Positions 920 to 50,369 of a stretch of DNA of 64,000 nt are shown here, in pieces. Each line of letters starts with the position of its first letter. Positions within the stretch are counted from its first letter, which is position 1. The translations under genes and the position numbers were made by a program. Under the pieces are notes generated by a model. The model saw only the letters and a list, made by a program, of their open reading frames with translations. It had not been told where the DNA came from and did no database searches. This DNA is from Escherichia phage vB_EcoM_RZ. The stretch lies in sequence record MW598459; one strand, 5' to 3'.

Positions 920-1257
920 TTCCACCACCTCTTTTTCATTTTAATCTTATCAATTTCATCTTGTATTTGCATTGTAACACACTTTTCTACATGCACTGCA
1001 AGCTCCGCTTTGCGGTCTTCGGAAGGGGTGCCGAAATCAACTGAAACTTTTCCAGATGGTTCAATTTTAATTCCGGTTACGTACACAATGTGACTGGACC
1101 CATCAGGGAGTGATAACAGAATTTCCTGTCGCACGGTTCCCATGGATTGCCGGATAATCTCCAAACTTTTTTCGTAGTAAGGTACAGAAGGAGCCTTAGC
1201 TCCCTCCGCATCTTTCTCGAAATTATCTAAATCAGATAAATCGATATCATTCATCAA
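913..1257 (-). CDS. 40: Head vertex assembly chaperone gp40-like (114 aa)
   Basis: Track ORF; position between uvsX and 41 as in T4; size matches gp40; assignment by synteny only. Confidence 0.55.
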   Translation of the reverse strand: MMNDIDLSDLDNFEKDAEGAKAPSVPYYEKSLEIIRQSMGTVRQEILLSLPDGSSHIVYVTGIKIEPSGKVSVDFGTPSEDRKAELAVHVEKCVTMQIQDEIDKIKMKKRWWKW

Positions 1258-2425
1258 GGTCTTCCATCATATCTAAATCGTTTTCAATATCTGCAGCAGA
1301 CGGTTTTGTCTTACCTTCCGGAGCAGTGTATTTTTCAACCTTGGAGGCAATAAGCGCGTCAACTTCGGCATCAACAACAGCATTGCTATCGATTGCACCC
1401 AGTTGGTAATGGCGTTTGATTGCATCACGGAAAGGTTCGTGTTTGAACAGTGGGCCCCAGAATTCGGTGCAGTTAGTATCTTTTGCGCGCCATGATTTTT
1501 CTTCGCGGACCATTTCACCGGTCTCAACATCAAGATATTCACGGTTATACCAACCAACTTTTGGTTTCACCACAAATCCGATTTCCATTGCCATATCAAG
1601 CAGGCCAGAATACGGGTCAATACCGCCATCGAATTTTACATCAATGAAGAATTTACTTTTCTCTTTGACCATACGAGATTTTTCGGCGTTCAGAACAAAT
1701 TGGAAGCCTTCAAGTTCTTTACCAGTTTCTTTAATCTGGCGTTTGCCGATAATGAATACGGTGTCCGCGGAATACATAACACCTGTACCGCCGGTCATAA
1801 CGGTTTTACTGTACATCTCAATCGTCTCGATTGTATGGTTAACCGCGACACAAGGAATATCCTTGATGCTAAAATATGGAGTAACAATACGGAACAGAGA
1901 TTTCAGGGATTTAGCACGAGTCATATCGCCAACAACTTTTTCGTTCATCGCATCTTCTGTTTCTTTTTTCGACGCCATGTTACCGATTGAGTCAATAAAG
2001 ATAATGACTTTTTCACCACGCTCAATTGCTTCAAGCTGGTTAACCATATCAACTTTCAATTGTTCAACCGACTGGATTGGTGTATGGATAACACGCTCCG
2101 GGTCAACTTTCATTGCACGAAGATAGGCTTCTGTGATACCAAATTCTGAATCATAGAACAAACAGATTGCATCGGGGTATTTGTTCATATATGCAGAGAC
2201 CATCGTTAAACCCATATTGGATTTAAAGTGTTTTGACGGACCAGCAAAAATAGTCAAACCTGACTGCATACCACCATCTAGTGCACCGCTGATTGCAATG
2301 TTCAGCATTGGGATTTTTGTACGAACTACATCTTTATCATTAAAGAACTTGGACTTGGTAAGAGTCGCAGTCATTTTGGATGTAGAAGCTTTAATCAAAC
2401 GGGATTTCAAATCTGCAATAGACAT
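1247..2425 (-). CDS. uvsX: UvsX RecA-like recombinase (392 aa)
   Basis: Track ORF; near-colinear match to T4 UvsX recalled from memory (MS..DLKSRLIKASTSK, GPSKHFKS P-loop, C-terminal acidic tail). Confidence 0.95.
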   Translation of the reverse strand: MSIADLKSRLIKASTSKMTATLTKSKFFNDKDVVRTKIPMLNIAISGALDGGMQSGLTIFAGPSKHFKSNMGLTMVSAYMNKYPDAICLFYDSEFGITEAYLRAMKVDPERVIHTPIQSVEQLKVDMVNQLEAIERGEKVIIFIDSIGNMASKKETEDAMNEKVVGDMTRAKSLKSLFRIVTPYFSIKDIPCVAVNHTIETIEMYSKTVMTGGTGVMYSADTVFIIGKRQIKETGKELEGFQFVLNAEKSRMVKEKSKFFIDVKFDGGIDPYSGLLDMAMEIGFVVKPKVGWYNREYLDVETGEMVREEKSWRAKDTNCTEFWGPLFKHEPFRDAIKRHYQLGAIDSNAVVDAEVDALIASKVEKYTAPEGKTKPSAADIENDLDMMEDLDE

Positions 2426-2504
2426 TCATTTTTTCCATAGGCACCATTATATTTTTCTCACAGGTTTAAGATAGGATAATTATATCACTGTATTTTTAGA
2501 GCAA

Positions 2505-2633
2505 TTAACGATTGAAACCACGATTAATTGCACGTTCAACAATCTTCCGGGTCTGACGTTTGTCCCACCAGTACATAAAACCAATACCAAATGCAGACAA
2601 CATCCACAGACTAATCAATAGCACACCAATCAT
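2505..2633 (-). CDS. Small hydrophobic protein (42 aa), hypothetical
   Basis: Hand-translated ATG..TAA ORF MIGVLLISLWMLSAFGIGFMYWW...; below track size cutoff; one predicted TM helix. Confidence 0.3.
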   Translation of the reverse strand: MIGVLLISLWMLSAFGIGFMYWWDKRQTRKIVERAINRGFNR

Positions 2634-2660
2634 AATATTTTTCCCGCAGTTCAGAGTAAT

Positions 2661-2768
2661 TTAGTAAACGTTTCCACGTTTCCAGTTTTCTTCAGCCAAA
2701 TGCTTATTACGCTTTTCTAATAGCAGCAAACCAATTACTGTTCCAACAATCAGAAGTAATAATAACAT
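2661..2768 (-). CDS. Small hydrophobic protein (35 aa), hypothetical
   Basis: Hand-translated ORF MLLLLLIVGTVIGLLLLEKR...; ATG overlaps stop of upstream lipoprotein gene (TGATG). Confidence 0.3.
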   Translation of the reverse strand: MLLLLLIVGTVIGLLLLEKRNKHLAEENWKRGNVY

Positions 2769-3271
2769 CAGTTAATACCTTGGCGTGCTTTCTCTTTAGC
2801 TACACATTTATTAATATAGCTCAGACGGTTTTGAGCAGAACGCTGATACATATCGCGGTACTCATTAGCTTTTGGAGAACCCGTCTCTGCTGCCTGATAA
2901 GCTTCCGCGCGCATAATGTTTATCTGCATATTGATGTATGACATGCAGACCTGTGAAATCTGGTTAACAGTGTCAAGGTCATTTTGTCGCTTGGTTTCTG
3001 CTTCCAGTTTGGCAATGATTTCGTCATGCTTCGCAGCTTGTTCGCGTTTGTACTCAATTTCACGTTGAGCATATTTCGCGCAGTTGTTTCCACATTGATT
3101 GTTGTCGCGTTTGTAGATAAGTCCAGTACCACCTTTGAAATCAAAGGAACCATTATGCACCTGACGGTCTGCAGCAATTCGCGCTTTACCAATCTCATTG
3201 GCATTAACAACATCACCCTGGTAAGCACAACCAGATAGCAGCATAACAGCTGCGATAGCTAACTTTTTCAT
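2768..3271 (-). CDS. Putative lipoprotein (signal peptide with lipobox LLSGC), hypothetical
   Basis: Track ORF 2768..3298; internal ATG at 3271 gives MKKLAIAAVMLLSGC with GAGGA RBS upstream; Gln/Ala-rich coiled region. Confidence 0.5.
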   Translation of the reverse strand: MKKLAIAAVMLLSGCAYQGDVVNANEIGKARIAADRQVHNGSFDFKGGTGLIYKRDNNQCGNNCAKYAQREIEYKREQAAKHDEIIAKLEAETKRQNDLDTVNQISQVCMSYINMQINIMRAEAYQAAETGSPKANEYRDMYQRSAQNRLSYINKCVAKEKARQGIN

Positions 3272-3281
3272 TGTATTTTCC

Positions 3282-3425
3282 TCAATTAAAACATTCATAG
3301 CGGGCTTGGAGTCCCAAAAATACCCAACCCAAAATTAAAGTTGGAATCATATGCGGAGTCATTATTGCCCAATAGATTGACATACTAAAAAATGCAATCA
3401 GTACAATAATTGTAATTATCTTCAT
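3282..3425 (-). CDS. Small membrane protein (47 aa), hypothetical
   Basis: Hand-translated ORF MKIITIIVLIAFFSMSIYWAIMTPHMIPTLILGWVFLGLQ...; ATG overlaps stop of imm-like gene. Confidence 0.3.
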   Translation of the reverse strand: MKIITIIVLIAFFSMSIYWAIMTPHMIPTLILGWVFLGLQARYECFN

Positions 3426-3664
3426 TTGGTTTCCTTGATGATAATTACTTGTGCGTTTGATTTACGCTCAGCAACGAGTGCCCAGATAAATGCAATAAAC
3501 CATCCGACCATTGTCCAACCTAACAGGAGGTTAACAAAGAAGATTCCGCAATTACTTTTGGTTCCTCGCAGTAGCGCGATAATCCATGGCAGAAAATATG
3601 CCAGTGCAGCCAGGAAGAAAGAACCAGCACCAAGAACAACAGTACCTGCAATTAATGTTTCCAT
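3422..3664 (-). CDS. imm: Imm-like superinfection immunity membrane protein (80 aa, two TM helices)
   Basis: Track ORF immediately downstream of gene 43 as imm is in T4; size and two-TM topology fit; sequence identity not verified. Confidence 0.45.
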   Translation of the reverse strand: METLIAGTVVLGAGSFFLAALAYFLPWIIALLRGTKSNCGIFFVNLLLGWTMVGWFIAFIWALVAERKSNAQVIIIKETK

Positions 3665-3704
3665 TTTAATATCCTTAATTTAATCATCAGTAGTTGATGG
3701 AGTA

Positions 3705-3734
3705 ATCATACGGCAATCCTTTGCCGTTGTAAAC
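3705..3734 (-). promoter_or_regulatory. Early sigma70-type promoter (-35 GTTTAC, 18 bp spacer, -10 TATGAT) with hairpin CGGCAA/TTGCCG in the spacer
   Basis: Read on minus strand directly between gene 43 stop and imm-like start; followed by conserved leader ..CCATCAACTACTGATGA. Confidence 0.5.
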
Positions 3735-3736
3735 AC

Positions 3737-6451
3737 TTAAAAATCAAACATATCAAAAAGAGATGCTTTTTTCTCGTAATCAACCTTAGCTGCTTCAGAG
3801 AACCCTGTTAATGGTTTGACAAAAGTCTTCTGGAACAGTGTGTTGTAGTCCATCCACTGCAAGACTTGGTCACGAATTTCAATCGGGAGTTCAATCCCTG
3901 ATGGCCATGCAATCACGGTTTCGCCAAACGGGTTACCAACTTTAAGAGGAAGCACATACACCTTTTCCCCTTCCATGATTTGTGGAACAGTCTTCAGACC
4001 TTTAGTTGCACGCATATATGCAAGCACACCTTTGATATGAGCCGGGCACTTAAATCCAGGGAAACCGCCTTCATTATATTTCTGGATGTTGTTAACCGAT
4101 GATACACCTGCGATGGTCATGTAGTTAAGCTCATTAAATTCCTTATTGAATTCCTTGAAGTATGTCTGCAGAGATTCTTCACCTTCTTGCAACATGCGGC
4201 GGATACATTCTTTCAGAGCTTTCTGACATGCCTTTGGAGTGCTCGACTTTTGAGTTTCCAGACCCATGATTTTCAGTTTCGGAACAGCATATCGTGTGCC
4301 TTCCATATCGTACACGTTCAACGCATAACGCTTCTTCGCCGTCCAGAACCCACCAACACCTTTAGAACCCAGCGGAGGACATGCAATCGCTTCACGGTCC
4401 ATAAACATAAGGTGCTGTTTGTTGTTCATGTATTCAGCCAGCTCACGGAAAGCTTTATCGATTGCCGGTTCCAGACGGTCTTTCGCGAACTTGTCCATGA
4501 AGTCAACCAGGTGGTTTGTATCACGGAATTTAGATTCACCACCAACCTTTTTAATCAGGTTATCGCACTGGATATAAATGGAGTCAGTGTCACCATAGAA
4601 TACGTAGGTTTCGCCGTTTGTCCCACAGACACTATCGAAGTATTCGTTAACTTTACGCTCAATCCACTGCAATGCAAGTTGTCCGAAAGATGTAATCGCG
4701 GTTGCATTTCGCAGGTCAAAGTAACGGAACCAGATATTACCCAGAGCGCCATAACAACTGTTGATAAGCAGTTTACGGTTAATCTGTGCGGTCATGCCTG
4801 CAACTTCTTCCATTTGTGCTTTGTACAACATACCATTCAGAACTGTTTGATTCAGTCCATGCAAGGTTGTTTTCATATTGTCATCAAAGTCATGACGATA
4901 ATCAACTTCAGGCTCGGTTGTACCAGTTCCTGGATTACGCAGAGCTTCCTTAATCAGTTCACCATTACGTTGAGCCGCAAGCATATAGCCTTTGTGTTCT
5001 TTACGCTGATTAAACACCTTGGTGACTTCTGTTGGAATAATACCTGCAACATCTTTAAAATACATCATACCATTTGGGGCACAACTAAATGTATCAGATG
5101 GACGGTCAGCAGTTCCTGCGATGTATTCATACATCTGGGCTGGAGCAAATGAACCGGCAATCGTTTCGGGACTGATGTTAATCTGTCGGATGATGCTCGG
5201 ATACAGAGATGTTAAGTCACAGCTCATTACATATTTGTATGCGTTCGGAATAGGTTCCTTAACAAATGCACCGGGGAACGATTGACGAACATGCGATTTG
5301 GTTTCCGGAATGACTTTGTTTTGAGTCTTCAGGCTGTTAAAGATAATCGCATCCCAAGTTTTGATTGGGCTGAATACAGACTGAATCTGCATCTTTGCAT
5401 AATAACCCATTGACTGACTCAGGTTAATAAACTGCCGCTTACGGTCAATCTGCACAACACGATAAACGTCGATGATGTTATAAGAAATATACCGTTGGTG
5501 ATTTGATTCACGCAGTTTAGAAATTGGGCCATCATATGGGAGTTTACCAACACCCAGTTCAGATTCCGCAACATAATCCAACGAATAAGACGGTTGATTT
5601 GTGAAGCTGAACTTTTTATACAGGTCCAGATAATCCAGAACAGAGATACCCAGAATCTGAATGATTTCTTGTTCTTCACCGAAACCGTTGTTAATGACCT
5701 TAACTTTTGTACGACGATGCGGACTCAGACGTTTTGCCGTAGCTTCACCAAATACATTTTTAAGACGGTTGTAGATATATGGAATATCAAACTTCTCGAT
5801 GTTCCAACCAGTTAACATAACCGGAGTTTTCTCGTTCCAGAATACCAAATACTGCTGGAGCATTTCTTCTTCTGAATCGAAAGCCATATAAACAATTTTT
5901 TCCAGGATTTCTTCAGGGACTTCATCGCCGCCATCTTCTTGCAGCTTAGCAGCAATATCAATAGACCATTGCTCCACAGTGGCGTATGGTGAGCTCAAAA
6001 GGTCAAAGACATAGAATTTATCGTCTACCGAATCATAGTGCGTCAGGGCATCAATAGGGTGACGTGCTTCAGACGGCTCAGGGAACCCATCGGGAGATGT
6101 CACCTCGATATCGAAGTTAGCAACACGGATTTTACTTGAATCATATTTGATTTCGTGTGGGTAACGGTCGGACAAGTATGCAAGTTTAAAGTCATCCATA
6201 CCCATAGCTTCGAGACCCATGTCATTCATTCGCTTCATCCACTGGGATGCATCACGCATGGAATCGAATTCTTTTTTCACACAACCTTTATTATAGATGT
6301 CTGTATACTTTGCAGCCTGGTCTTCACGGGCGTGCATAAACAAGCATGGAGCATAAGGGATTTCACGAACACGTTCATGACCGTTCTTGTCAATGTATCG
6401 TTCGAGCAGATTGTCACCGATTTGTTCGATAGTTAAATAAAATTCTTGCAT
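3737..6451 (-). CDS. 43: DNA polymerase gp43 (family B, 904 aa)
   Basis: Track ORF; FDIE exonuclease motif, DxxSLYPS, KxxxNSxYG and YGDTDS polymerase motifs; close to T-even/RB69 gp43 from memory. Confidence 0.97.
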   Translation of the reverse strand: MQEFYLTIEQIGDNLLERYIDKNGHERVREIPYAPCLFMHAREDQAAKYTDIYNKGCVKKEFDSMRDASQWMKRMNDMGLEAMGMDDFKLAYLSDRYPHEIKYDSSKIRVANFDIEVTSPDGFPEPSEARHPIDALTHYDSVDDKFYVFDLLSSPYATVEQWSIDIAAKLQEDGGDEVPEEILEKIVYMAFDSEEEMLQQYLVFWNEKTPVMLTGWNIEKFDIPYIYNRLKNVFGEATAKRLSPHRRTKVKVINNGFGEEQEIIQILGISVLDYLDLYKKFSFTNQPSYSLDYVAESELGVGKLPYDGPISKLRESNHQRYISYNIIDVYRVVQIDRKRQFINLSQSMGYYAKMQIQSVFSPIKTWDAIIFNSLKTQNKVIPETKSHVRQSFPGAFVKEPIPNAYKYVMSCDLTSLYPSIIRQINISPETIAGSFAPAQMYEYIAGTADRPSDTFSCAPNGMMYFKDVAGIIPTEVTKVFNQRKEHKGYMLAAQRNGELIKEALRNPGTGTTEPEVDYRHDFDDNMKTTLHGLNQTVLNGMLYKAQMEEVAGMTAQINRKLLINSCYGALGNIWFRYFDLRNATAITSFGQLALQWIERKVNEYFDSVCGTNGETYVFYGDTDSIYIQCDNLIKKVGGESKFRDTNHLVDFMDKFAKDRLEPAIDKAFRELAEYMNNKQHLMFMDREAIACPPLGSKGVGGFWTAKKRYALNVYDMEGTRYAVPKLKIMGLETQKSSTPKACQKALKECIRRMLQEGEESLQTYFKEFNKEFNELNYMTIAGVSSVNNIQKYNEGGFPGFKCPAHIKGVLAYMRATKGLKTVPQIMEGEKVYVLPLKVGNPFGETVIAWPSGIELPIEIRDQVLQWMDYNTLFQKTFVKPLTGFSEAAKVDYEKKASLFDMFDF

Positions 6452-13242: not shown

Positions 13243-13382
13243 AAGCCAAGCGCCATTATCGCAATGCAAAATAAAATTATTGAAATGAACCCGTCAGGAG
13301 TAGAAAAGAATCCTATCCAACAAGCTCGTGTGAATGTGTAGAATGCCATGAATAACACGACATATCCTAAAAATAATTCCAT
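13239..13382 (-). CDS. Small membrane protein (47 aa), hypothetical
   Basis: Hand-translated ORF MELFLGYVVLFMAFYTFTRACWIGFF...; stop overlaps gene 47 ATG. Confidence 0.3.
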   Translation of the reverse strand: MELFLGYVVLFMAFYTFTRACWIGFFSTPDGFISIILFCIAIMALGL

Positions 13383-13426
13383 ATACTCTCCTCAGTTGGT
13401 TCATTTTATCATCCCGAATATAAAGC

Positions 13427-13449
13427 AAAAAAGGAAGCACTAGGCTTCC
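13427..13449 (-). terminator. Intrinsic terminator hairpin (GGAAGC-ACTAG-GCTTCC) followed by U-run on minus strand
   Basis: Inverted repeat with A6 on plus strand (T-run on the transcribed minus strand). Confidence 0.45.
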
Positions 13450-13694
13450 TTTCCAATTAATACACCATACAGAGGTTCGCGATTAGACTTGAACTTGATT
13501 TTCTTATGGGTAATAGTACCTTCATTTTCTGCTTTAATACGAGCGGCTTCAAATTGAAGTATCATCTCATTTTTGTCAGATTTAATCTTATCAAAATCCG
13601 TCGAATTCGTCATTCATATAGCCTCTTAAACTTTTTCGTATTCGTCATTCATAAGTTTAAAAATCCGGGTGTTCGTCTTCAAAGCAACCGATAT

Positions 13695-13895
13695 TCATCG
13701 CTGCCACCACTTCTTAAGTTGATGTGAATCCACCCAAACCTTGGCCACGGGCTCAATCTGAAAAATACCATCAGAATACTGCCCAACCATTTTATATTCG
13801 GTTTCGGTCTGCTTGATACAGATATTACCGTATGAGCGAAGTCTGAAAGCGGCTCCAACAAGAAGCCGTTTAAAAGGTTTATTTACTAATGCCAT
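13695..13895 (-). CDS. Hypothetical protein (66 aa)
   Basis: Track ORF. Confidence 0.3.
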   Translation of the reverse strand: MALVNKPFKRLLVGAAFRLRSYGNICIKQTETEYKMVGQYSDGIFQIEPVAKVWVDSHQLKKWWQR

Positions 13896-14190
13896 TTACG
13901 ATTTCCCAAATTTGTTTGCGAGTAGTTTCCCACATCAACTTAATCAGGTCTTCCGTAACTGGTTGGCGGTAAATTCCACGCAGTTTAACTAAAGCATATT
14001 TGTATGCTTCAAAATTGTTTTCCAGCACCGCCCCTTGAGCATGCTTATTCAGTCGTGCAATTTCACGAGCATTCTTTTTCAGAATCTTTGCTGCTTGACT
14101 CTGTGCTTCGAGTGCGTTCGCTTCTTCGAGACGTTCCTGTGCTTCTTCAATCTGCTTATCGGTCAGTTGAGAAATATCTGGAGCTTGCAT
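13879..14190 (-). CDS. Hypothetical protein (103 aa)
   Basis: Track ORF co-directional upstream of the former. Confidence 0.45.
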   Translation of the reverse strand: MQAPDISQLTDKQIEEAQERLEEANALEAQSQAAKILKKNAREIARLNKHAQGAVLENNFEAYKYALVKLRGIYRQPVTEDLIKLMWETTRKQIWEIVNGISK

Positions 14191-14191
14191 A

Positions 14192-14443
14192 TTAATCCTT
14201 GGGAGTTAACTCAATTGTAAAATATAGATTAGCATTATCCACATGATAACGGTAATCAACGTTATTATCCGGCGAAGTAAATTCCAAATTCCGGACGTTT
14301 AAAGGGTCGATATCAATTGGAAGACCTTTTATGTCTCGCAGATAAAGTTTAATGAAATATGGGAGCGCAGTAAAGTCTTCCTCGATTTTATCTAAAAAAT
14401 CGGTAATATCAAATTGATGTTCCATATAAAAAATCCAAATCAC
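14192..14443 (-). CDS. Hypothetical protein (83 aa)
   Basis: Track ORF directly downstream of gene 55. Confidence 0.4.
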
Positions 14444-18234: not shown

Positions 18235-18705
18235 TTAATCATGTTTCCACACCCCATCGGTATTTGACCAAAGTCGCTGATTATCTGACCCTCGCCACAG
18301 TTTTTTGGTCGGAAGATTTTTCTCATACTTCCCATCAATAATAATATCAACATATTTAAGCATTTCTAGTTGTTTAATATCTTCAAACTTATATCCTGTC
18401 CACATCCAAATGCTTTTATTTGGATAAAGATTTTTAACAGTTTGAACCACAGAGTGAATAACATCTCGGTTATCAGGATAGAGAGGGTCTCCTCCGGTTA
18501 TAGTTAATCCTTCTATATAATCATTATTCAAACATTCAATTAATTGTTCTAGTGTTTCACCAGTGAATGGAATGCCATTTCTAGCATTCCATGTTGATTT
18601 ATTATAACACCCTTCACATTTATGCAAACAACCTGTGACGAAAAGAACGACCCTGCATCCAGGGCCATTCACAAAATCGCAAGGATAAAATCTATCATAA
18701 TTCAT
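18235..18705 (-). CDS. nrdG: Anaerobic ribonucleotide reductase activating protein NrdG (radical SAM)
   Basis: Track ORF; CxxxCxxC cluster CLHKCEGC; downstream of nrdD. Confidence 0.9.
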   Translation of the reverse strand: MNYDRFYPCDFVNGPGCRVVLFVTGCLHKCEGCYNKSTWNARNGIPFTGETLEQLIECLNNDYIEGLTITGGDPLYPDNRDVIHSVVQTVKNLYPNKSIWMWTGYKFEDIKQLEMLKYVDIIIDGKYEKNLPTKKLWRGSDNQRLWSNTDGVWKHD

Positions 18706-20519
18706 TGGTGTTTAACCCTATGCATGATTTCTTTATTTTTGCCGAGATTAAATCCGCGTTCGTTCGGATTTCCCAAATAACCACAAGTTCTTCTTATTGT
18801 GTTCATCTTTTTAGGGTCAGTTTCTCCACAAATAGAACAAACAAATCCGTTTTCAGTAGGAGTCATTTCATGAGTACTTCCACACGTAAAACATTTATCT
18901 ACTGGCATATTAACACCAAAATAATCTAAATGTTGTGCGGCATAATCCCATACAGCCTCAAGACCTTTTAAGTTATTTTTCATATCAGGAAGTTCAACAT
19001 AAGAAATGTGACCACCTGTCGCAATGAAATGATATGGGGCTTCGCGAGAAATCTTTTCAAACGGAGTGATATTTTCTTCTACTGAAACGTGGAAACTGTT
19101 AGTGTACCAGCCTTTATCAGTAACATCCTTTACACTTCCATATTTTTCAGTATCAAGTTTACAAAAGCGATAACAAAGGTTTTCAGCAGGTGTAGAATAC
19201 AAACTAAAAGCAAAACCGGTTCTTTCAGTCCACTGCTTAAGACGAGCATTCATTTTAGTTAAAATTTCTTGCCCAATATCACGACCGGCAAGAATATTCA
19301 ATTCGTGAATACCAATGTATCCCAAAGACACTGAACTTCTACCGTTTTTAAATAACTCAATTATGTCGTCATCAGGTTTAAGACGAACCCCGAATGCACC
19401 TTCTTGGTAAAGAATAGGAGCAACAGTCGCTTTAACTCCTTTTAAAGAACTAATTCTACACATCAATGCTTCAAAGCATAAATCCATTCGCTCATTGAAC
19501 AATTCGATAAATTTCTGTTCATTGAACTGTGTTCCAATATAAGAATCTAACGCAATGCGAGGAAGATTCAGTGTTACAACACCAAGATTATTACGCCCAT
19601 CAAGAATTTCATTACCAGTCGAATCTTTCCATACGCTCAAGAAACTACGACAACCCATTGGAGAAACAGGAATAGATGAACCGGTGATAGCTTTGTTATT
19701 CTTAACTGAAATAATATCAGGATACATCCTTTTGCTTGCACACTCTAGAGCAAGCTGCTTAATATCATAGTTCGGGTCGTCTTTATAAAGATTAACACCT
19801 TCTTCAACGAACATAACAAGTTTAGGGAAAATAGGAGTTATCCCATCGCGACCAAGACCTTTGATACGATTTTTCAGAATTGCTTTCTGAATCATTCGTT
19901 CAGTCCAGTCAGTTCCCGTGCCAAACGTAATTGTCACAAAAGGCGTTTGCCCATTTGAACTAAAGAGCGTATTTACTTCATATTCATAAGCTTGGAATGC
20001 ATCATATACGTCTTTTTCTGTTTTAGATTGAGCATAATTCAATGCATCAGTGATTTGCCATTTTTCTGCATCTTCAATATGTTTTGCGTATGTACGTTTA
20101 ACATAAGGAGAAAATACTTTGTCTACATTAGCAAAAGTCGTTCCACCATATTGGTGAGAAGCAACCTGTGCAGTAATTTGTGCCATAATTGCAGTAGCAA
20201 CACCAATTGATTTAGGAGTTTCAATCTGCGCATTACCGAGCTTAAACCCGTTCTCAAGCATTCCTTTTAAATCTACTAAACAGCAATTAGTAAATGGAAG
20301 AGCGGGGGAATAATCAATATCATGGAAATGAATAATTCCACTTTCATGTGCTTTCATAATAAAAGACGCGACCATATTTTTGGCAATGTGTTTAGATACA
20401 ATACCAGCCATAAGGTCCCGTTGAGTTGGAAAAACACGAGAATCTTTATTAGCATTCTCGTTTAAAAGGTCTTTATTAGTTTTATGAATCAATCCTTCAA
20501 TTTCGTTTTCAATTGTCAT
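18702..20519 (-). CDS. nrdD: Anaerobic ribonucleoside-triphosphate reductase NrdD (605 aa), uninterrupted
   Basis: Track ORF; C-terminal zinc ribbon CFTCG...CSICG and glycyl-radical motif RTCGYLG; same length as T4 NrdD. Confidence 0.9.
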   Translation of the reverse strand: MTIENEIEGLIHKTNKDLLNENANKDSRVFPTQRDLMAGIVSKHIAKNMVASFIMKAHESGIIHFHDIDYSPALPFTNCCLVDLKGMLENGFKLGNAQIETPKSIGVATAIMAQITAQVASHQYGGTTFANVDKVFSPYVKRTYAKHIEDAEKWQITDALNYAQSKTEKDVYDAFQAYEYEVNTLFSSNGQTPFVTITFGTGTDWTERMIQKAILKNRIKGLGRDGITPIFPKLVMFVEEGVNLYKDDPNYDIKQLALECASKRMYPDIISVKNNKAITGSSIPVSPMGCRSFLSVWKDSTGNEILDGRNNLGVVTLNLPRIALDSYIGTQFNEQKFIELFNERMDLCFEALMCRISSLKGVKATVAPILYQEGAFGVRLKPDDDIIELFKNGRSSVSLGYIGIHELNILAGRDIGQEILTKMNARLKQWTERTGFAFSLYSTPAENLCYRFCKLDTEKYGSVKDVTDKGWYTNSFHVSVEENITPFEKISREAPYHFIATGGHISYVELPDMKNNLKGLEAVWDYAAQHLDYFGVNMPVDKCFTCGSTHEMTPTENGFVCSICGETDPKKMNTIRRTCGYLGNPNERGFNLGKNKEIMHRVKHQ

Positions 20520-23859: not shown

Positions 23860-24795
23860 TTATTTTAATGCTTTGATTGCCGCTTGCAATTTATTGCGTT
23901 GTTTTTCCATATTCTTGATGCGATTCAGAACATCCTGGATACCCTTTTTCTCATCTTCAATCAGACCATTTAAGCGGTTAACTGATTCCCGGATAGCATC
24001 AGCATGATAGCTCTCAATAGGCTTCATTGGTGGGTTAAAGATTTCAAGAGAGCTGTTTGGCTGGATTTTCCATTGATACATATTTTTAACTTCCAGTGGT
24101 GAAATTTTAGTCTGGTCGTAAGATTTAAACTGACCTGCAAATGCTGGGCCATATGATGCGGTAGGGATACGTTCCATTTCTGGTTCCTTTTTATCTTCTG
24201 GTTCATTTTTCTCTTGATAAGGAGCATAAGATAAAAGATATTCTTTAGTCAATTTAATATCAATGGCTATAGTTTTGAGGAATTTTTCCGTTTGGTGGAT
24301 ATAATTTGTATCTTCATCAAACGTGTACGATTCAACAGCATGGCGCATATAAAACAGCGCAATACCCATAACCTCTTTAAAGTTATGACAAAGAGCAACA
24401 TCGCCCTTGGTAGTTGGTTTGAACTTAATCTGTACACCATCATTCTTAATATTGATAATCAAGTTGTCAGAGTTAAAATTATAGTTCTTGATGTTAACCG
24501 GAGCTTTGCGAATACGAAATCCGCCGGCCAGAATTTCCTTGATACTCTTACGAACCGTGGCACCAAACAAAAACGCTGGGCGACGGCAGTAATCATTCAG
24601 AGAGTTAATTCTTACAATACGTTGACCATACCCCTGGGTAGCAGAACCTGATTTGATTTTGCCAAAGTTAACCAAAGAATTCATTGCGATAAGACGAGTC
24701 ACACGACCGTCATGTGGTTCATAACTACTAGCGTATTCTTTACGTGTTTTAATTTTCATATCATAGTCCAAATAATTTTTCATAGAATTTAGCAA
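23860..24795 (-). CDS. Hypothetical protein (311 aa) with C-terminal coiled coil
   Basis: Track ORF. Confidence 0.5.
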   Translation of the reverse strand: MLNSMKNYLDYDMKIKTRKEYASSYEPHDGRVTRLIAMNSLVNFGKIKSGSATQGYGQRIVRINSLNDYCRRPAFLFGATVRKSIKEILAGGFRIRKAPVNIKNYNFNSDNLIINIKNDGVQIKFKPTTKGDVALCHNFKEVMGIALFYMRHAVESYTFDEDTNYIHQTEKFLKTIAIDIKLTKEYLLSYAPYQEKNEPEDKKEPEMERIPTASYGPAFAGQFKSYDQTKISPLEVKNMYQWKIQPNSSLEIFNPPMKPIESYHADAIRESVNRLNGLIEDEKKGIQDVLNRIKNMEKQRNKLQAAIKALK

Positions 24796-27198: not shown

Positions 27199-27945
27199 AT
27201 GATTTTATCCGGAAGAACTGTTGATGAACTCAATGAAAAAGTCCAGGCTGCCTTGGCTGATAATTGGTATTTGTTTGGTTCTACTATGGTGTTGCCGAAT
27301 ACCCCTACAGATAGCAAAGAGCGTTTTTTCCAAACTATGTCCAGCTCGGAAACTCAGATACCGGGTCCGCTTGGTCCCAAAGGAGAACCGGGTGTACCCG
27401 GACCAAAAGGAGACCCAGGTGGGGATGGAAAATCTTCTTATCAGATATGGCTTGACTTGGGAAATACAGGAACTGTTGATGATTTTTTAACTGATACAGC
27501 AGGAAAGAGGGAAAAATCCGAGGTGTTTTGGAGTGGTATAAACGTTCTATTAACTAATGGTACGACTTCAAACATAATTAGTGTTTTAAAGGGGATTCCA
27601 CCGACTGCAGGGACTCTATCTCCGTTTTTTAGAACCACTGATGATAAGTTGTGGCCATATAACCAAGACAGAAGCCTAATGTTTAAACTCAACCTTATTG
27701 GTAATTTTGCAGGAGCCTCGCAAGCTCGAAGTATAACATTAAATTTCGTTGGAACCAACGGAAACACTTATATACAGAATCGTCCGGAAAATGCTACAGA
27801 TATTTTGTCTTTTACAACGTTCTTTAGCATTGATAAAGATGGGGCAATGGCAACCAATGGTACAGCTATAACTGTTATGCCAAATGGCGGCAACTTTACA
27901 ATAACCTCCGCATTGTTAGTAGCCGAACAAACAGTGACTTCATAA
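27199..27945 (+). CDS. Collagen-like repeat protein (248 aa), hypothetical; only plus-strand gene in a minus-strand region
   Basis: Track ORF; AAGGAG RBS 7 nt upstream of ATG; seven Gly-X-Y triplets; Asn/Thr/Gly-rich C-terminal half. Confidence 0.6.
   Translation: MILSGRTVDELNEKVQAALADNWYLFGSTMVLPNTPTDSKERFFQTMSSSETQIPGPLGPKGEPGVPGPKGDPGGDGKSSYQIWLDLGNTGTVDDFLTDTAGKREKSEVFWSGINVLLTNGTTSNIISVLKGIPPTAGTLSPFFRTTDDKLWPYNQDRSLMFKLNLIGNFAGASQARSITLNFVGTNGNTYIQNRPENATDILSFTTFFSIDKDGAMATNGTAITVMPNGGNFTITSALLVAEQTVTS
27364..27429 (+). repeat. Gly-X-Y collagen-like triplet run (GPLGPKGEPGVPGPKGDPGGDG)
   Basis: Seen directly in the translation of ORF 27199..27945. Confidence 0.8.
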
Positions 27946-32473: not shown

Positions 32474-33046
32474 TCAGCTTGTTAATTCGAGCCAATGTTT
32501 CCTGCATAAAGATACGTACGATTCATTCCCACCGACTAACACTTGCTCGCCGTCCTTTACAGCAGCACCGTCGATTACTCGCGCGGTCATGGTTGCTTTC
32601 CGGCCGCAATGACAGACGCCCTTTAATTCAACCAGTTTATCCGAAATAGCCAGAAGTCTGGCTGAACCGGGAAATAATTGACCCCGAAAATCTGTTCTTA
32701 ACCCGTAACACATAACGGGGATATTGTAATTATCAACCACTTGAGCTAACTGGTCAATTTGCTCTGGTAACAAAAATTGAGCTTCATCGACCAGGACACA
32801 ATGGATATCCTTTTGAGACTCGGCCCATTTATAGAATTCAAACAGGTTCATGTCGGCCGTTACCAGGTTTGCTTCCTGGCTAATACCAATACGTGATTTG
32901 ATTTCAGATTCCGAGTCCCGATTATCAATAACAGGTTTTAGCAAAAGCACACTCATTCCACGCTCTTTATAGGAATAAGCTGCAGTCAGCAATGAAGCTG
33001 TTTTGCCTGCATTCATTGCTGCGTAATGATAAATTAAACTCGCCAT
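32474..33046 (-). CDS. tk: Thymidine kinase (190 aa)
   Basis: Track ORF; P-loop AAMNAGKTASLL, VDEAQF, C-terminal zinc ribbon CHCG...C; T4 tk-like. Confidence 0.9.
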   Translation of the reverse strand: MASLIYHYAAMNAGKTASLLTAAYSYKERGMSVLLLKPVIDNRDSESEIKSRIGISQEANLVTADMNLFEFYKWAESQKDIHCVLVDEAQFLLPEQIDQLAQVVDNYNIPVMCYGLRTDFRGQLFPGSARLLAISDKLVELKGVCHCGRKATMTARVIDGAAVKDGEQVLVGGNESYVSLCRKHWLELTS

Positions 33047-34253: not shown

Positions 34254-34796
34254 TTAATCCACCGTTTTTAATAGGCCTCGTGATTTTAAGTAGTTAGCTT
34301 TTTCTAGGACCTGTGAAGCATACGTATTACCAGCTTTCACATTCCATCCTGCGTTATATGATGATAGTGTTTTCCTTATATCCCCCTTATGAATATTCAA
34401 CCAGTATGAAAGCTCAATGTAAGCCCAGCGTGCACTGTTCTCTCTCTTGCTTATCATCTTGATTATTTCTTTATCTGTCATTGTCCACCCAACCTGTTTC
34501 ACGCGTTCGCGCACGGTTGGAAGATAATTTTGGAATATACCATATGCATGATGCTTATCTTTATTTAATCCAGTATTAATCCCAGCAGAACTCTCCTGCC
34601 AGGTTAAACCAGCCATGATATATCCCAAACCATTATGTTGGTGCGGATTTTCTTTGTACTTACCATTTTTCTGGAACTGTTCTCCAAACGCATAAGCATA
34701 TTGGAGGTTTTCCATTTGTTCATTACTGAAAGTAGGCTCTACGCTATGGGCAGACATACTAACTGTCAATAGTAAGGTGGCGATTACTTTTTTCAT
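34254..34796 (-). CDS. Secreted lytic-transglycosylase-like protein (180 aa)
   Basis: Track ORF; signal peptide MKKVIATLLLTVSMSAHS; GLTWQESS catalytic-Glu-like motif and YGIFQ as in SLT domains; tentative. Confidence 0.45.
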   Translation of the reverse strand: MKKVIATLLLTVSMSAHSVEPTFSNEQMENLQYAYAFGEQFQKNGKYKENPHQHNGLGYIMAGLTWQESSAGINTGLNKDKHHAYGIFQNYLPTVRERVKQVGWTMTDKEIIKMISKRENSARWAYIELSYWLNIHKGDIRKTLSSYNAGWNVKAGNTYASQVLEKANYLKSRGLLKTVD

Positions 34797-34806
34797 GAAT
34801 TCCCCA

Positions 34807-35265
34807 TTAGATATAAATCACTTTTGTGCTAATTTTTCCTTCCAGACGATTAGAGTTAACAAACGCCATACGACAACACATGGTCGGAGACTTCCCAGGA
34901 ATAGCGGGGTTAACTGTCATTCCTAACCACAGGTTCTTGTCCGTGATTTCCAGACGAAGTGGACGGTAGTTCACATTCGGGTCAATTTGTGCTTCAACTT
35001 CCGGGAGTGGTTTCATCTCCAAGAATTCAACGATTTCTTTTACATGTGGTGTGATTTTTCCAAACAAGTCAAAAACATATTGTTCATCAATTTCACGTTG
35101 GATTGCACGGTCCAACAGGTGTGGACTGTACTTAATGAAGAATGCCTCAAGGCCTGCTTCTTTACAAGCCTTGTTGATAGCATTATTAATTTTGAGGAAC
35201 TCCGTTTCAAAAATGCGACGAAGTTTATTGCGGCGAATGTAAACACTTGAATCGATAGTAGTCAT
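34807..35265 (-). CDS. regB: RegB site-specific endoribonuclease (152 aa)
   Basis: Track ORF 34807..35322; ATG at 35265 downstream of early promoter gives MTTIDSSVYIRRNKLRR..., matching T4 RegB from memory. Confidence 0.85.
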   Translation of the reverse strand: MTTIDSSVYIRRNKLRRIFETEFLKINNAINKACKEAGLEAFFIKYSPHLLDRAIQREIDEQYVFDLFGKITPHVKEIVEFLEMKPLPEVEAQIDPNVNYRPLRLEITDKNLWLGMTVNPAIPGKSPTMCCRMAFVNSNRLEGKISTKVIYI

Positions 35266-35292
35266 GATTATCTCCTTTTGTTTGATGGGATA

Positions 35293-35321
35293 ATCATAAC
35301 TCATTTCAATCTGCTTGTACA

Positions 35322-35322
<1 letters not shown>
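35293..35322 (-). promoter_or_regulatory. Early promoter (-35 GTGTAC, 18 bp, -10 TATGAT)
   Basis: Read on minus strand upstream of regB; leader TATCCCATCAAACAAAAGGAGATAATC. Confidence 0.55.
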
Positions 35323-35901
<579 letters not shown>

Positions 35902-40445: not shown

Positions 40446-41405
40446 TTATTTTTCGAAAGGGCGAATTAAATGCTGGTTAGCTTTGAAACGTTTAACATAG
40501 TCTTCGTGACCCAGGGTGTTGTACATATTAACCACTTCCTGATAATGTTCCCAGGCATACTCACGGAACCATCCAGAAGTAATGGAGGTACAGACTTTTT
40601 CCAGCGCAATATGGAAGCTCACGGATGGAGAGATATTGAACTCATTGGGAACCTGCGAACGCTCCAGAGCGAGTACACATGCTTCTTCATAAACCCCTGC
40701 CAGTTTAATAATCTCAGGGAGTGCTTCAAATTTTTCACGCGAGGTCATAACTTCTGAATCATCCTTCATATAGAACTTATATGCAGGTTTATCAGCAAGC
40801 GCCACGGCCTCGTGGATGGAGTCATGGTCAAGGGTATAGATTGTATCATTAAAGAAAGTTTTCTTGCCCACGTCTAGTTTAGGGTGACTATATGACAATG
40901 TTTCTGCCTGGCGCTGCAGCATGATTTTATGCAGTTCGTCATTAAGAACAACACCCTTATTGCGAAGGTAATTAATATGACTCATTGTCTTCAGGAAGAA
41001 TGGATTGTTCTTCAGGTAACGATGAGACAGTTTAATTGCCAGACAAATATCAGGAGTCGCCCAATAGAAACCTGTAAGACGGTCTTTCTTAATATGATTT
41101 TCAGCGTATTTCAAGAGACGATAACTTGAGGTGAAATCTTCATCTTGAAGCTCACCAGTAATTTCTCGTACGTTAGTCAGGGCACGGACAATATAAGCTT
41201 CAAAATAGGTTTCTTTGCCATTGTACATACATTTAAAAGCTTGGACATCAGGGTTATCCACAGGAACATGAGCACCGAACATACGTGCTTTAAAGTGGTT
41301 CCAGGAGCCCTGGTCAGCGATAAAGTCCCAATCAGAGTTTTCAATTTTCTGACTTTCAATCAGACCAGCGTTATGTAATGCACGAGAACCAATAACTAAC
41401 ATCAT
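40446..41405 (-). CDS. Hypothetical protein (319 aa) with N-terminal GS...SDWDF nucleotidyltransferase-like motif
   Basis: Track ORF; MMLVIGSRALHNAGLIESQKIENSDWDF; early promoter upstream. Confidence 0.5.
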   Translation of the reverse strand: MMLVIGSRALHNAGLIESQKIENSDWDFIADQGSWNHFKARMFGAHVPVDNPDVQAFKCMYNGKETYFEAYIVRALTNVREITGELQDEDFTSSYRLLKYAENHIKKDRLTGFYWATPDICLAIKLSHRYLKNNPFFLKTMSHINYLRNKGVVLNDELHKIMLQRQAETLSYSHPKLDVGKKTFFNDTIYTLDHDSIHEAVALADKPAYKFYMKDDSEVMTSREKFEALPEIIKLAGVYEEACVLALERSQVPNEFNISPSVSFHIALEKVCTSITSGWFREYAWEHYQEVVNMYNTLGHEDYVKRFKANQHLIRPFEK

Positions 41406-44718: not shown

Positions 44719-45162
44719 TTAAATTTCAAATTCTTTGCGGAAGTTGGAAGCATAAGACTGAACTGACGCTTTGTTGAATCCAAACTCACGCACAATCATA
44801 TCAATAACAGCTCTGCGAGCAGCACCATTAGACATATTAACAGTTTTGAACATATCATAGCATAAATCTTTGTTGCTCATACCGGAGCGTTTAGGTGCCT
44901 TACGCTCAGCTTTTGGTTCAGCTTTAGGAGTAGGTTTAACTTCTGGGTTAACCTGTCCATCATTCAGACCTTTAAAAATTTTACCTGCCAGAGTTGCCAG
45001 TTTAGCAGCTTCGCCACGAGTGATACCAAATACTGCCGGGTTAAATGAAATACCTTCAGCTGTCAGACGTTTGAAGAACATACGTGCTGCGGATTGTGCT
45101 TCAGCTTCAGAAGAGTTGTTTAATGCCAGTTTAACATACTTAACCAGTTTTGAAGTTTTCAT
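44719..45162 (-). CDS. Hypothetical protein (147 aa), paralog of 45246..45671
   Basis: Track ORF 44719..45213 trimmed to ATG at 45162 (MKTSKLVKY...); shared C-terminal domain ..NGAARRAVID..QSYASNFRK. Confidence 0.5.
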   Translation of the reverse strand: MKTSKLVKYVKLALNNSSEAEAQSAARMFFKRLTAEGISFNPAVFGITRGEAAKLATLAGKIFKGLNDGQVNPEVKPTPKAEPKAERKAPKRSGMSNKDLCYDMFKTVNMSNGAARRAVIDMIVREFGFNKASVQSYASNFRKEFEI

Positions 45163-45204
45163 TTTATTATCCCGTTTGTTTATTTGGTAACTCAGTATGG
45201 GATA

Positions 45205-45234
45205 ATTATACATTATCCCACCTGGAAGTAAAAC
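45205..45234 (-). promoter_or_regulatory. Early promoter (-10 TATAAT inside hairpin TGGGATAAT/ATTATCCCA; weak -35)
   Basis: Read on minus strand upstream of ORF 44719..45162. Confidence 0.4.
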
Positions 45235-45245
45235 ACTTTTCTCAA

Positions 45246-45671
45246 TTATTTTTGAGCTTTGCGGAAGTTGGATGCATATGACTGAACAACAGTCTTTTTG
45301 ATATCATGGGTGGTAACCAGAACATCAATCAGAGCGCGACGAGCTGCATTATCATTCATATCAATTTCTGCAAATGCCTGGAAGCAAATGTCACGAGCGT
45401 TACCAGATTTGGACTGGATTTTTTCTTCTTTAACTTCTTCAATTGGGAATTCAATCATTTCAGCTTGGATTAATTCAATGATAGATTCTTTTGACTGTTT
45501 GGTGTTTACCTTCAGTTCAGAATTAAGGGACTTGGCAATGGCAACAATCTGGGTTGAAGTCAGATGGATAAGTGCATCTTCACGAATGCAGATTTCACAT
45601 ACTTCGTCAGCAACCATTTTGTTAGTGATGCGGGTAACAGAGAATGCAGAGGTCAGGGTCAGAAAGTTCAT
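45246..45671 (-). CDS. Hypothetical protein (141 aa), paralog of 44719..45162
   Basis: Track ORF 45246..45752 trimmed to ATG at 45671 (MNFLTLTSAF...); C-terminus ..NDNAARRALID..QSYASNFRK. Confidence 0.5.
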   Translation of the reverse strand: MNFLTLTSAFSVTRITNKMVADEVCEICIREDALIHLTSTQIVAIAKSLNSELKVNTKQSKESIIELIQAEMIEFPIEEVKEEKIQSKSGNARDICFQAFAEIDMNDNAARRALIDVLVTTHDIKKTVVQSYASNFRKAQK

Positions 45672-45722
45672 TTTATTTCTCCAAAGTTTTGTTTGATTCA
45701 GTGTGTAACTCAGTATGGAATC

Positions 45723-45752
45723 ATTATGCACCCGGTCAATCTGGATGTACAC
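45723..45752 (-). promoter_or_regulatory. Early promoter (-35 GTGTAC, 18 bp, -10 CATAAT)
   Basis: Read on minus strand upstream of ORF 45246..45671. Confidence 0.5.
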
Positions 45753-45812: not shown

Positions 45813-46367
45813 TTAGTTCTTATAAAAGCGGAACGGATTTATATGGAAGGCGAGCATAGCCTTAGGGATGGGTCGGGACAGAAGGCTCTTGAGCTTCCAG
45901 CCACAATAAACACGCAGATAAAAGGTGATTCCACCGACCTTAAGATAAGGAACAGAAGCAAAAACACCCCAGGCATTGTCCGTCCACATAAAGAGCCATC
46001 CGTGATGAGCTTTATCCGGGGAACCAGATTCGACATCAGGATTACCTTTATAATGGAATTCTGAATTGCAATCACGACCGAGCTTGTGGTAAGCAAAATT
46101 GTATGCTTTGTTTCGCCAGAGCCAGGCTACTCGTTGGAAGTAAACACCTAATGGCCATTTTCGGATTTTTGACCAACGTTTGACATGACCCCGGTCACCA
46201 TCAATCGGATTATCATAAGTCATCATCCAATCAAACCCGAACGGAAGTTTACCAGTCTTTTTATTATGGAACGGAACTACAAATGGAGCCAGGATAACGG
46301 CCAGAATCATGGAGATAAAATCCAGCGGAACTAACAGAATCCAACTCAAATATTTTAACAGTTTCAT
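45813..46367 (-). CDS. Hypothetical membrane protein (184 aa)
   Basis: Track ORF 45813..46508 trimmed to ATG at 46367 (MKLLKYLSWILLVPLDFISMILAVILAPFVVPF); upstream part of track ORF overlaps the RNA region. Confidence 0.5.
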   Translation of the reverse strand: MKLLKYLSWILLVPLDFISMILAVILAPFVVPFHNKKTGKLPFGFDWMMTYDNPIDGDRGHVKRWSKIRKWPLGVYFQRVAWLWRNKAYNFAYHKLGRDCNSEFHYKGNPDVESGSPDKAHHGWLFMWTDNAWGVFASVPYLKVGGITFYLRVYCGWKLKSLLSRPIPKAMLAFHINPFRFYKN

Positions 46368-46390
46368 ACGTTTCTCTTTAGTTGATTTAT

Positions 46391-46418
46391 AAAAAAGCCC
46401 CAACCTTTCGGAAGGGGC
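46391..46418 (-). terminator. Hairpin with U-run on minus strand, probable terminator of the tRNA/small-RNA transcript
   Basis: GCCCC...GGGGC inverted repeat preceded by A6 on plus strand. Confidence 0.4.
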
Positions 46419-46458
46419 TATACCTTGTCGGGGTTCCACCTGCAAGGCAAGTGTTTGT

Positions 46459-46550
46459 ACGAAACGCCGGGATTCGAACCCGGTTATTAAGCAGTTGACG
46501 CTACTCAATATTTTTAAAAGGCCATATCTCGACCATATCCGAACGTTCCG
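46459..46550 (-). ncRNA. tRNA-like element (canonical T-arm CCGGG-TTCGAAT-CCCGG plus 7-bp acceptor-like stem) without a recognisable cloverleaf; possible small stable RNA
   Basis: Hand-folded from minus-strand sequence; 92 nt between paired acceptor-like ends; D and anticodon arms not identifiable. Confidence 0.3.

Positions 46551-50368: not shown

Positions 50369-50369
<1 letters not shown>

Follow-up and report, generated by a model that had tools for sequence, protein, structure and literature searches.

An empty modification slot in a Gaprivervirus genome and a thymidylate synthase variant predicted to methylate dCMP

Introduction

T-even phages are the classic model of cytosine replacement in DNA. 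In T4, the interval between the DNA polymerase gene 43 and the recombinase gene uvsX has the order 43, imm.1, imm, a 49-residue open reading frame (ORF; Y02C/‘42.1’), 42, beta-gt, segA, and uvsX, in which gene 42 encodes the deoxycytidine monophosphate (dCMP) hydroxymethylase and beta-gt the beta-glucosyltransferase. In JS98, the order is 43, imm, orf44, the lipoprotein gene orf43, orf42–orf38, an ORF similar to the 42-residue ORF described below, and uvsX. The genes orf42–orf38 constitute the arabinosyl-5-hydroxycytosine pathway described in 2026, and orf39 is the homologue of RB69 gp48 (PMC13326640). This cluster occupies the same spot in Dhakavirus, the sister genus of Gaprivervirus to which JS98 belongs, and in RB69; it consists of genes for a ThyA-like 5-hydroxy-dCMP synthase and a sugar isomerase, a kinase-like gene, and genes for transferases. 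Here, the corresponding slot (positions 2426–3736, minus strand) is described for the window, i.e., the whole 64,000-nucleotide stretch of DNA from Escherichia phage vB_EcoM_RZ (sequence record MW598459). It contains none of these modification genes. Judged from the sequences of the window and its relatives, they were most likely replaced by a thymidylate synthase gene, td, with aspartate at the position of Asn177 in Escherichia coli ThyA, rather than relocated or lost outright.

In T4, dCTPase (gene 56), Alc, DenA, DenB, Ndd, Cd, and the gene 1 kinase form a set that presupposes cytosine-free phage DNA. Two papers have singled out the genus Gaprivervirus as an exception without an explanation: the hydroxymethylase is lacking, yet dCTPase, DenB, and Alc are kept, from which they conclude that some protein or base as yet unknown has to exist (PMC8056088, PMC12115623). 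The absence of gene 42 is already a published puzzle, and both the enzyme and the base are acknowledged as unexplained. In other words, machinery that destroys cytosine DNA is kept without a known enzyme for a substitute base, and the empty slot is the physical trace of this exception. The DNA of the member VR7 contains “modified cytosines” that are non-glycosylated (PMC6326788, main text and Supplementary Figure S4); in a restriction assay with T4 beta-glucosyltransferase treatment, it was labelled apart from that of a hydroxymethylated T4 mutant, and VR7 is fully blocked by BREX (PMC6326788).

Organization of the slot between gene 43 and uvsX

The region 2300–3900 matched 480 phage records, with a coverage of 80% or more in 31 of them. 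The top matches were Escherichia virus TH40 (98.3%), pEC-M719-6WT.2, MN01, VR20, VR26, VR7, and SP18; those whose record or taxonomy was considered belong without exception to Gaprivervirus (Tevenvirinae). By sequence, the source of the window is placed in this genus, in the VR7/SP18/TH40 group of T-even phages. The entire window is colinear with positions 21707–83742 of VR7 and with positions 65557–131349 of TH40, the closest complete relative retrieved (94.6% identity over 60,389 of the 64,000 bases). In the first 53 kb of the window, the genes are directed along the minus strand. The slot itself measures 1311 bases and holds five ORFs, which are listed here together with the genes at its borders.

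1247–2425, minus strand: uvsX recombinase, 392 residues, identified from the ORF and the annotation of relatives; downstream border of the slot
2505–2633, minus strand: 42-residue single-helix peptide with the basic tail RKIVERAINRG; present or absent as a unit, apparently an optional cassette
2661–2768, minus strand: 35-residue single-helix peptide, identified from the ORF and hydropathy; its start overlaps the lipoprotein stop (TGATG); apparently an optional cassette
2768–3271, minus strand: lipoprotein, 167 residues, beginning MKKLAIAAVMLLSGC; phrog_1754 at 5.8e-47
3282–3425, minus strand: 47-residue hydrophobic peptide; phrog_3610 at 7.6e-27 and PF26865 Phage_T4_Y02C (precomputed for an identical product)
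3422–3664, minus strand: imm, superinfection immunity membrane protein, 80 residues; PF14373 and phrog_1039
3737–6451, minus strand: gene 43 DNA polymerase, 904 residues, annotated as such in VR7, MN01, and JS98; upstream border of the slot

The exact gene 43 protein is present in a Logan contig, with PF03104 and PF00136, and UvsX of VR7 is 79% identical to that of T4. The original prediction, made from the letters of the window, that this interval holds only an imm-like gene, a lipoprotein gene, and tiny hydrophobic ORFs is confirmed by the ORF map in both coordinates and content. Its description of the ORFs as a chain linked by overlapping stop and start codons applies to two of the four junctions, imm/47-residue ORF (ATGA) and lipoprotein/35-residue ORF; the other two are gaps of 10 nt (from the 47-residue ORF to the likely lipoprotein start at 3271) and 27 nt (between the 35- and 42-residue ORFs). 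Across nine Gaprivervirus genomes, imm, the 47-residue ORF, and the lipoprotein gene change mainly at synonymous sites and have no internal stops, and their indels are in-frame against VR25, the most diverged genome. Because of this pattern, and because homologues occur in JS98 and T4, these three appear to be real genes and more than chance ORFs.

The slot resembles that of T4 in its borders, in an imm gene whose product is 52% identical to T4 Imm over 83 residues (full length), in a small ORF directly past imm, and in the N-terminal motif of the lipoprotein, a lipobox followed by QG-VVN----GK. It differs in that gene 42, beta-gt, and segA are missing and two additional tiny membrane ORFs are present. 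The lipoprotein gene lies after imm, whereas T4 imm.1 lies before it, and its product is larger and unrelated to Imm.1 past approximately residue 47. The likeness to Dhakavirus JS98 and Mosigvirus RB69 is closer, since the order 43, imm, small ORF, lipoprotein, 42-residue-like ORF, and uvsX is identical. Yet, in JS98, five genes spanning 4.2 kb, including the ThyA-like 5-hydroxy-dCMP synthase, are present between the lipoprotein gene and the 42-residue-like ORF, and none of these five is found in the window, VR7, or TH40. Gaprivervirus thus has the flanks of this locus without the 4.2-kb modification module, which may have been lost from the imm–uvsX slot or never acquired. Because the membrane genes of the slot coexist with modification genes in JS98 and T4, they replaced nothing; by its gene order, the slot is best described as the ancestral T-even “imm corner”, with ordinary conserved T-even gene content. 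Two ORFs of this corner are unannotated in RefSeq, namely the T4 49-residue ORF (L003 5225–5383, minus strand) and the JS98 ORF upstream of uvsX (L007 ~3954–4061, minus strand).

Absence of modification genes from the window and its relatives

The original prediction had also seen no hydroxymethylase- or glycosyltransferase-like ORF anywhere in the window, and this was upheld by four kinds of search. With T4 gp42 and beta-gt as tblastn queries, the window gave no hit (best E = 0.13 and 2.3, respectively). A ThyA-family hidden Markov model (HMM), built from T4 gp42, JS98 orf39, and VR7 td and run over all six frames, found no ThyA-family ORF in the window (best E = 0.021). In Pfam scans of 30 of the larger window ORFs, no thymidylate-synthase-like and no glycosyltransferase family was detected. 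Finally, tblastn with JS98 orf38–orf42 recovered none of these genes in the window, where the best value for orf42 was E = 0.036 and orf38 gave nothing at E ≤ 0.1. The place of the second T4 transferase gene was inspected in the same map.

13270–14410, minus strand: slot of a-gt, between genes 47 and 55; ORF map with only small ORFs similar to a-gt.2 to a-gt.5

This segment is syntenic with positions 34631–35676 of VR7, in which a-gt.2 to a-gt.5 are annotated and a-gt is not. By this synteny the a-gt slot is vacant, T4 alpha-gt itself not having been a search query.

The same picture was obtained from complete genomes. Neither VR7 nor TH40 contains a homologue of gene 42, beta-gt, or the arabinosyl cluster by tblastn and HMM searches, and td is the sole match to the ThyA-family HMM in both (3.1e-110 in VR7 and 3.5e-99 in TH40). 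The VR7 annotation includes genes 56, alc, denA, denB, ndd, cd, gene 1, td, and Tk and none of 42, a-gt, and b-gt; TH40 has the same set. On these sequence comparisons, the modification module is cleanly missing in Gaprivervirus, from the slot as well as from the whole genome.

Thymidylate synthase with aspartate at position 177

Gaprivervirus td is the positional orthologue of the T-even thymidylate synthase gene and adjoins frd and nrdA. In VR7 Td, however, the segment that reads GLPFNIASY in E. coli ThyA is GLPFDIGSY, and an alignment with T4 Td (PDB 1TIS; E = 7.8e-128) pairs flglpfNiasy with flglpfDigsy. When a large protein collection was queried with VR7 Td, 120 close homologues were obtained. 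Aspartate is found at the position of E. coli Asn177 in six of the six Gaprivervirus td sequences or clusters, i.e., VR7, TH40, and P0001–P0004 (P0001 is the SP18 type; P0004 is the vB_YenM_P8/TH40 type and includes TH40), and PF00303 is recorded for all four clusters. All 117 comparators have asparagine: 116 homologues from Tequatrovirus, Mosigvirus, Dhakavirus Bp7, and others (64–69% identical), together with E. coli ThyA. The 14 catalytic or binding residues (R21, E58, W80, Y94, R126, R127, C146, H147, Q165, R166, S167, D169, H207, and Y209) are kept. Indeed, N177D is the sole difference from T-even Td among the twelve residues within 6 Å of the substrate C5 (list of PMC13326640). The residues at positions 143, 169, and 177 compare as follows.

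Genuine thymidylate synthases (E. coli ThyA, T-even Td): Leu143, Asp169, Asn177
T4 gp42: Asp143, Asp169, Asp177
JS98 orf39: Glu143, Asn169, Asp177
Gaprivervirus Td: Leu143, Asp169, Asp177

The N177D substitution turns thymidylate synthase to dCMP, with 5-methyl-dCMP as product (PMC8670742). A large hydrophobic amino acid (Leu, for example) at position 143 correlates with a methyl product and Asp or Glu143 with a hydroxymethyl product, and D169N is a feature of the 5-hydroxy-dCMP synthases (PMC13326640). From the combination of Leu143, Asp169, and Asp177, Gaprivervirus Td is predicted to be a dCMP methylase. It shares the ThyA fold, the catalytic set, Asp177, and a hydrophobic residue 143 with the dCMP methyltransferase of phage Xp12, which is compared here by description rather than by sequence, and with the engineered mutants E. 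coli N177D and L. casei N229D. Unlike these, it is a T-even positional td orthologue, 65–69% identical to genuine T-even synthases, and the only ThyA homologue of its genome. T4 gp42 likewise uses dCMP as its substrate, with Asp at the position equivalent to 177, but it differs in Asp143 and Thr147 and lies on a distant branch without BLAST-level similarity to Gaprivervirus td. Gaprivervirus Td keeps Leu143 and His147, for which a methyl rather than a hydroxymethyl product is predicted.

Exactly 31 phage records carry an Asp177-type Td (84.6–100% identity; the next match has 69.6%), those listed being all of the Gaprivervirus type, and the gene-42-less slot is likewise found in 31 records. Among 149 clusters representing related thymidylate synthases, 7 are Leu143/Asp177 variants. 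As judged from these sequences, the enzyme class is not new; what appears to be new is that a T-even phage has it as its sole ThyA homologue. No earlier report of 5-methylcytosine or of an Asp177 td in Gaprivervirus was found in the literature searched, outside which lay the 2025 Cell Host & Microbe paper on arabinosyl-hydroxy-cytosine. Between VR7 and TH40, Td (84.6%) and dCTPase (70.5%) are less alike than Frd (96.9%), Cd (99%), and gp1 (99.6%), i.e., two allelic forms exist, and both Td forms have Asp177.

Proposed route to 5-methylcytosine

There is a reasonable probability that the Asp177 Td stands in for the lost modification, methylating dCMP so that 5-methylcytosine takes the place of cytosine in the DNA. 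The broader statement, that Gaprivervirus is a T-even lineage with 5-methylcytosine DNA, made by a thymidylate synthase repurposed through Asn177 → Asp, and without a thymidylate synthase of its own, is favored by these sequence data by a slight balance. Such a replacement was not foreseen by the original prediction.

In the proposed route, dCMP would be supplied by the breakdown of host DNA and by dCTPase. Td-Asp177 would methylate it to 5-methyl-dCMP, with Frd recycling the folate. The gene 1 deoxynucleoside monophosphate (dNMP) kinase, followed by the host nucleoside diphosphate kinase, would then convert 5-methyl-dCMP to the triphosphate, and the gene 43 polymerase would incorporate 5-methyl-dCTP, placing 5-methylcytosine where cytosine would otherwise be. 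The kinase gene lies in the window.

50369–51046, minus strand: gene 1 dNMP kinase; PF21448 at 5e-77, T4 gp1 (PDB 1DEK) at 4.7e-58, and 98.7% identical to VR7 gp1

Thymidine monophosphate (dTMP) could be provided by host ThyA, by Tk salvage (window 32474–33046), or by Cd through deamination of 5-methyl-dCMP. In Xp12, deamination of 5-methyl-dCMP by a deaminase is reportedly a route to dTMP. The published restriction data for VR7 fit 5-methylcytosine: enzymes blocked by this base fail, cleavage by Csp6I is seen, and neither a hydroxymethyl group nor a sugar is apparent.

Several points weigh against this proposal. The td gene would lie ~50 kb outside the window, so that its presence in the source phage as the same allele is inferred from relatives. 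For the exact gene 43 product, the only matches were short Logan contigs of SRR22742279, and look-ups of td (P0002 and P0003) led to other runs. The residue rules were drawn from mutants and correlations. Identity between VR7 and T4 is ~65% for td, similar to that for frd (66%) and gp43 (60%); accelerated evolution of td was rejected because this value is typical of neighboring genes, and the active-site change is the sole signal of a shift. Furthermore, McrBC-type enzymes would be expected to attack fully 5-methylated DNA, and a counter-measure was not identified. Alc, DenB, and dCTPase may also fail to tell 5-methylcytosine from cytosine.

The Asp177 Td turns the puzzle into a specific prediction, in which gene, residue, and product are all named and which could be checked at low cost. 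If the prediction is true, methylation would be a third T-even route to modified cytosine, beside hydroxymethylation and hydroxylation, in which a dispensable housekeeping enzyme has been recruited to anti-restriction. It would also provide a natural, fixed example of the textbook N177D specificity switch, and an easily grown coliphage would become a source of fully 5-methylated DNA. The question bears on which defenses, such as BREX and McrBC-type enzymes, stop these phages, which are considered for therapy.

Small membrane genes of the slot

According to the original prediction, the small genes might form a superinfection-exclusion module, and in its strongest form this would mean that all five act as one exclusion machine that took over the slot. 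The part concerning Imm stands. Imm matches PF14373 with E = 1e-17 (64.2 bits, against a cut-off of 27.9) and phrog_1039, “immunity to superinfection”, at 1.8e-30; beside its true homology to the T4 exclusion protein, it is 68% identical to JS98 Imm. It has two hydrophobic helices, with hydropathy peaks at residues 4–22 and 46–64, and its gene starts 72 nt past the gene 43 stop. By analogy with T4, its role is most likely to block DNA entry of superinfecting T-even phages.

The 47-residue ORF is 51% identical to its T4 counterpart over 53 residues (tblastx). Its counterparts are the T4 ORF between imm and gene 42 and JS98 orf44, and the three have the motif MIPT-I-GW...YEC-N in common. By sequence, this peptide appears to be a conserved and translationally coupled partner of imm in three genera, and a joint action with Imm at the inner membrane is probable. 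The retention of this pair in T4 and JS98, together with the two stop/start overlaps and the prediction from hydropathy that all five slot products are envelope proteins, would be expected of an exclusion module. However, imm, the 47-residue ORF, and the lipoprotein gene are ancestral and stand beside modification genes in JS98 and T4, as described above.

The likely start of the lipoprotein is the ATG at 3271, which is preceded by a GAGGA ribosome-binding site and is annotated alike in MN01 and VR7; the longest ORF, from an alternative start at 3298, would encode 176 residues. The lipobox LLSGC fits the pattern [LVI][ASTVI][GAS]C, and the segment MKKLAIAAVMLLSGC is invariant across nine homologues. 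Beyond the lipobox, the protein has four cysteines, the conserved motif QCGNNCAKYAQRE, and a C-terminal half that is helical. Its identity to JS98 orf43 is 53%, and a homologue search returned 8 clusters. The similarity to T4 Imm.1 (hhalign probability 90.7%) extends over just 39 N-terminal columns (~47 residues), signal peptide included, and the tblastn match (E = 6e-4) over 28 residues. An AlphaFold2 model has a pLDDT (predicted local distance difference test) of 69.7 and is confident for the helical C-terminal half only. When this model was compared with viral and PDB libraries by Foldseek, only the JS10 homologue and generic helical hairpins were found, and a PDB sequence search gave no match. 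Assignment to Cor (NCBIfam) was rejected, as the match (E = 0.027) covers the signal peptide only. The lipoprotein would be periplasmic, and an envelope role, whether in exclusion or in the masking of receptors, is an unsupported possibility; no family or fold connects it with exclusion.

The 35- and 42-residue ORFs each encode one N-terminal hydrophobic helix followed by a short charged tail. The window, MN01, phage 212 (ph212), and TH40 have the two together; the 42-residue ORF alone is found in VR7 and VR20, the 35-residue ORF alone in TH41 and VR25, and SP18 has neither. The deletions end at, or a few bases from, the ORF boundaries; the 35-residue ORF, for instance, is precisely missing from VR7, VR20, and SP18, and it is carried by 10 phage records, all Gaprivervirus. 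At the protein level, a homologue of the 42-residue ORF (...REVRKIVDKAINRGIK), unannotated there, lies just upstream of uvsX in JS98, and the ORF is 46% identical to an ORF of IME281. The two ORFs plausibly encode genuine small membrane peptides, which by their distribution appear to be dispensable within the genus. Since they vary independently among close relatives, and given the points above on the ancestral genes and the lipoprotein, it is doubtful that the five genes constitute one exclusion machine.

Other explanations for the missing modification genes

Another possibility is that an unrecognized enzyme outside the ThyA family makes a different cytosine derivative, the Asp177 Td then being incidental or a dual-specificity thymidylate synthase. 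The published view that base and enzyme are unknown would accommodate it, the genome contains many uncharacterized ORFs, some of them genus-restricted, and the restriction data say only “modified cytosines”. However, Pfam and PHROG scans of ~30 larger window ORFs yielded no candidate. VR7 ORF147c, labelled “cytidine/dCMP deaminase-like”, was rejected as a modification enzyme, since its copy in the window has neither a Pfam hit nor the zinc motif of a deaminase. In addition, the change at Asn177, a residue invariant in the 117 comparators, coincides exactly with the loss of the dedicated enzyme, which on this reading would take considerable coincidence. An enzyme of this kind is therefore considered unlikely, and the Asp177 Td the better candidate.

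Ordinary cytosine DNA, with dCTPase, Alc, and DenB retuned or inactive, has a precedent in Krischvirus and Pseudotevenvirus, which use cytosine and keep a dCTPase/dUTPase homologue. These genera, however, have neither alc nor denB, whereas Gaprivervirus has both, and VR7 DNA resists methylation-sensitive enzymes and was reported to contain modified cytosines. Given that dCTPase (56), Alc, DenA, DenB, Ndd, Cd, and the dNMP kinase are retained in the genus, plain cytosine DNA can be set aside as very improbable in comparison with methylation by the Asp177 Td.

Finally, a simple rearrangement, in which gene 42 and a transferase lie outside the 64-kb window, might be entertained for mosaic T-even genomes with many indels between relatives and a window of ~37% of a ~171-kb genome, but it is hardly credible, since VR7 and TH40, each with a single ThyA-family gene and no gene 42, beta-gt, or arabinosyl cluster, rule it out for the genus, in agreement with the VR7 annotation and two published surveys. 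Of the two outcomes that the original prediction had left open for the modification genes, absence therefore holds and relocation does not.

Candidate regulatory elements and other features of the window

Two candidate promoters were noted at the ends of the slot.

3705–3736, minus strand: candidate early promoter for imm, GTGTTTACA, 17 nt, TATGAT; sigma-70 scan, 10/12
2479–2506, minus strand: candidate uvsX middle promoter, MotA-box-like AATTGCTCTA (TGCTCTA), 12 nt, TATAAT; T4 middle-promoter pattern

The candidate imm promoter encloses a 7-bp hairpin, ACGGCAA/TTGCCGT (3727–3710), directly past the gene 43 stop, with a folding energy of −11.9 kcal/mol (z = −2.4). This putative promoter/hairpin element is kept in nine Gaprivervirus genomes. 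The element upstream of uvsX is near-invariant in nine of nine aligned genomes, and by its fit to the T4 consensus it is a putative MotA box with its middle promoter. A single terminator-like site was found in the slot, inside the 47-residue ORF, and was rejected as no more than chance; an Rfam search of the slot gave a single sub-threshold chance match.

Elsewhere in the window, nrdG (156 residues, PF13353) and nrdD (605 residues, PF13597), encoding the anaerobic ribonucleotide reductase, occupy 18235–20519 (minus strand); they are present in TH40 and not in VR7 at this position. At 27199–27945, a 248-residue ORF on the plus strand, i.e., opposite to the early region around it, has a collagen-like repeat and a tail-needle knob of the Sf6 type (PF16532, 2.6e-32), and it is not there in VR7. 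Three ORFs on the minus strand gave matches only to DUF7275 and DUF7277 (40446–41405), DUF7235 (23860–24795), and DUF7338 (45813–46508). The VR7 “restriction endonuclease” ORF135c, which adjoins the counterpart of the 40446–41405 ORF, is absent from the window. A MobB-like endonuclease lies between genes 3 and 2 of VR7 and is missing in the window, which instead has, relative to VR7, a 242-residue ORF between genes 2 and 4 (52549–53277, minus strand); from a weak match to a treble-clef zinc finger, this ORF is probably a homing endonuclease. Two adjacent Lys-rich paralogues at 44719–45213 and 45246–45752 (minus strand) have a common C-terminal domain (phrog_18416, phrog_9997, and phrog_17275), and the second of them is the window copy of ORF147c.

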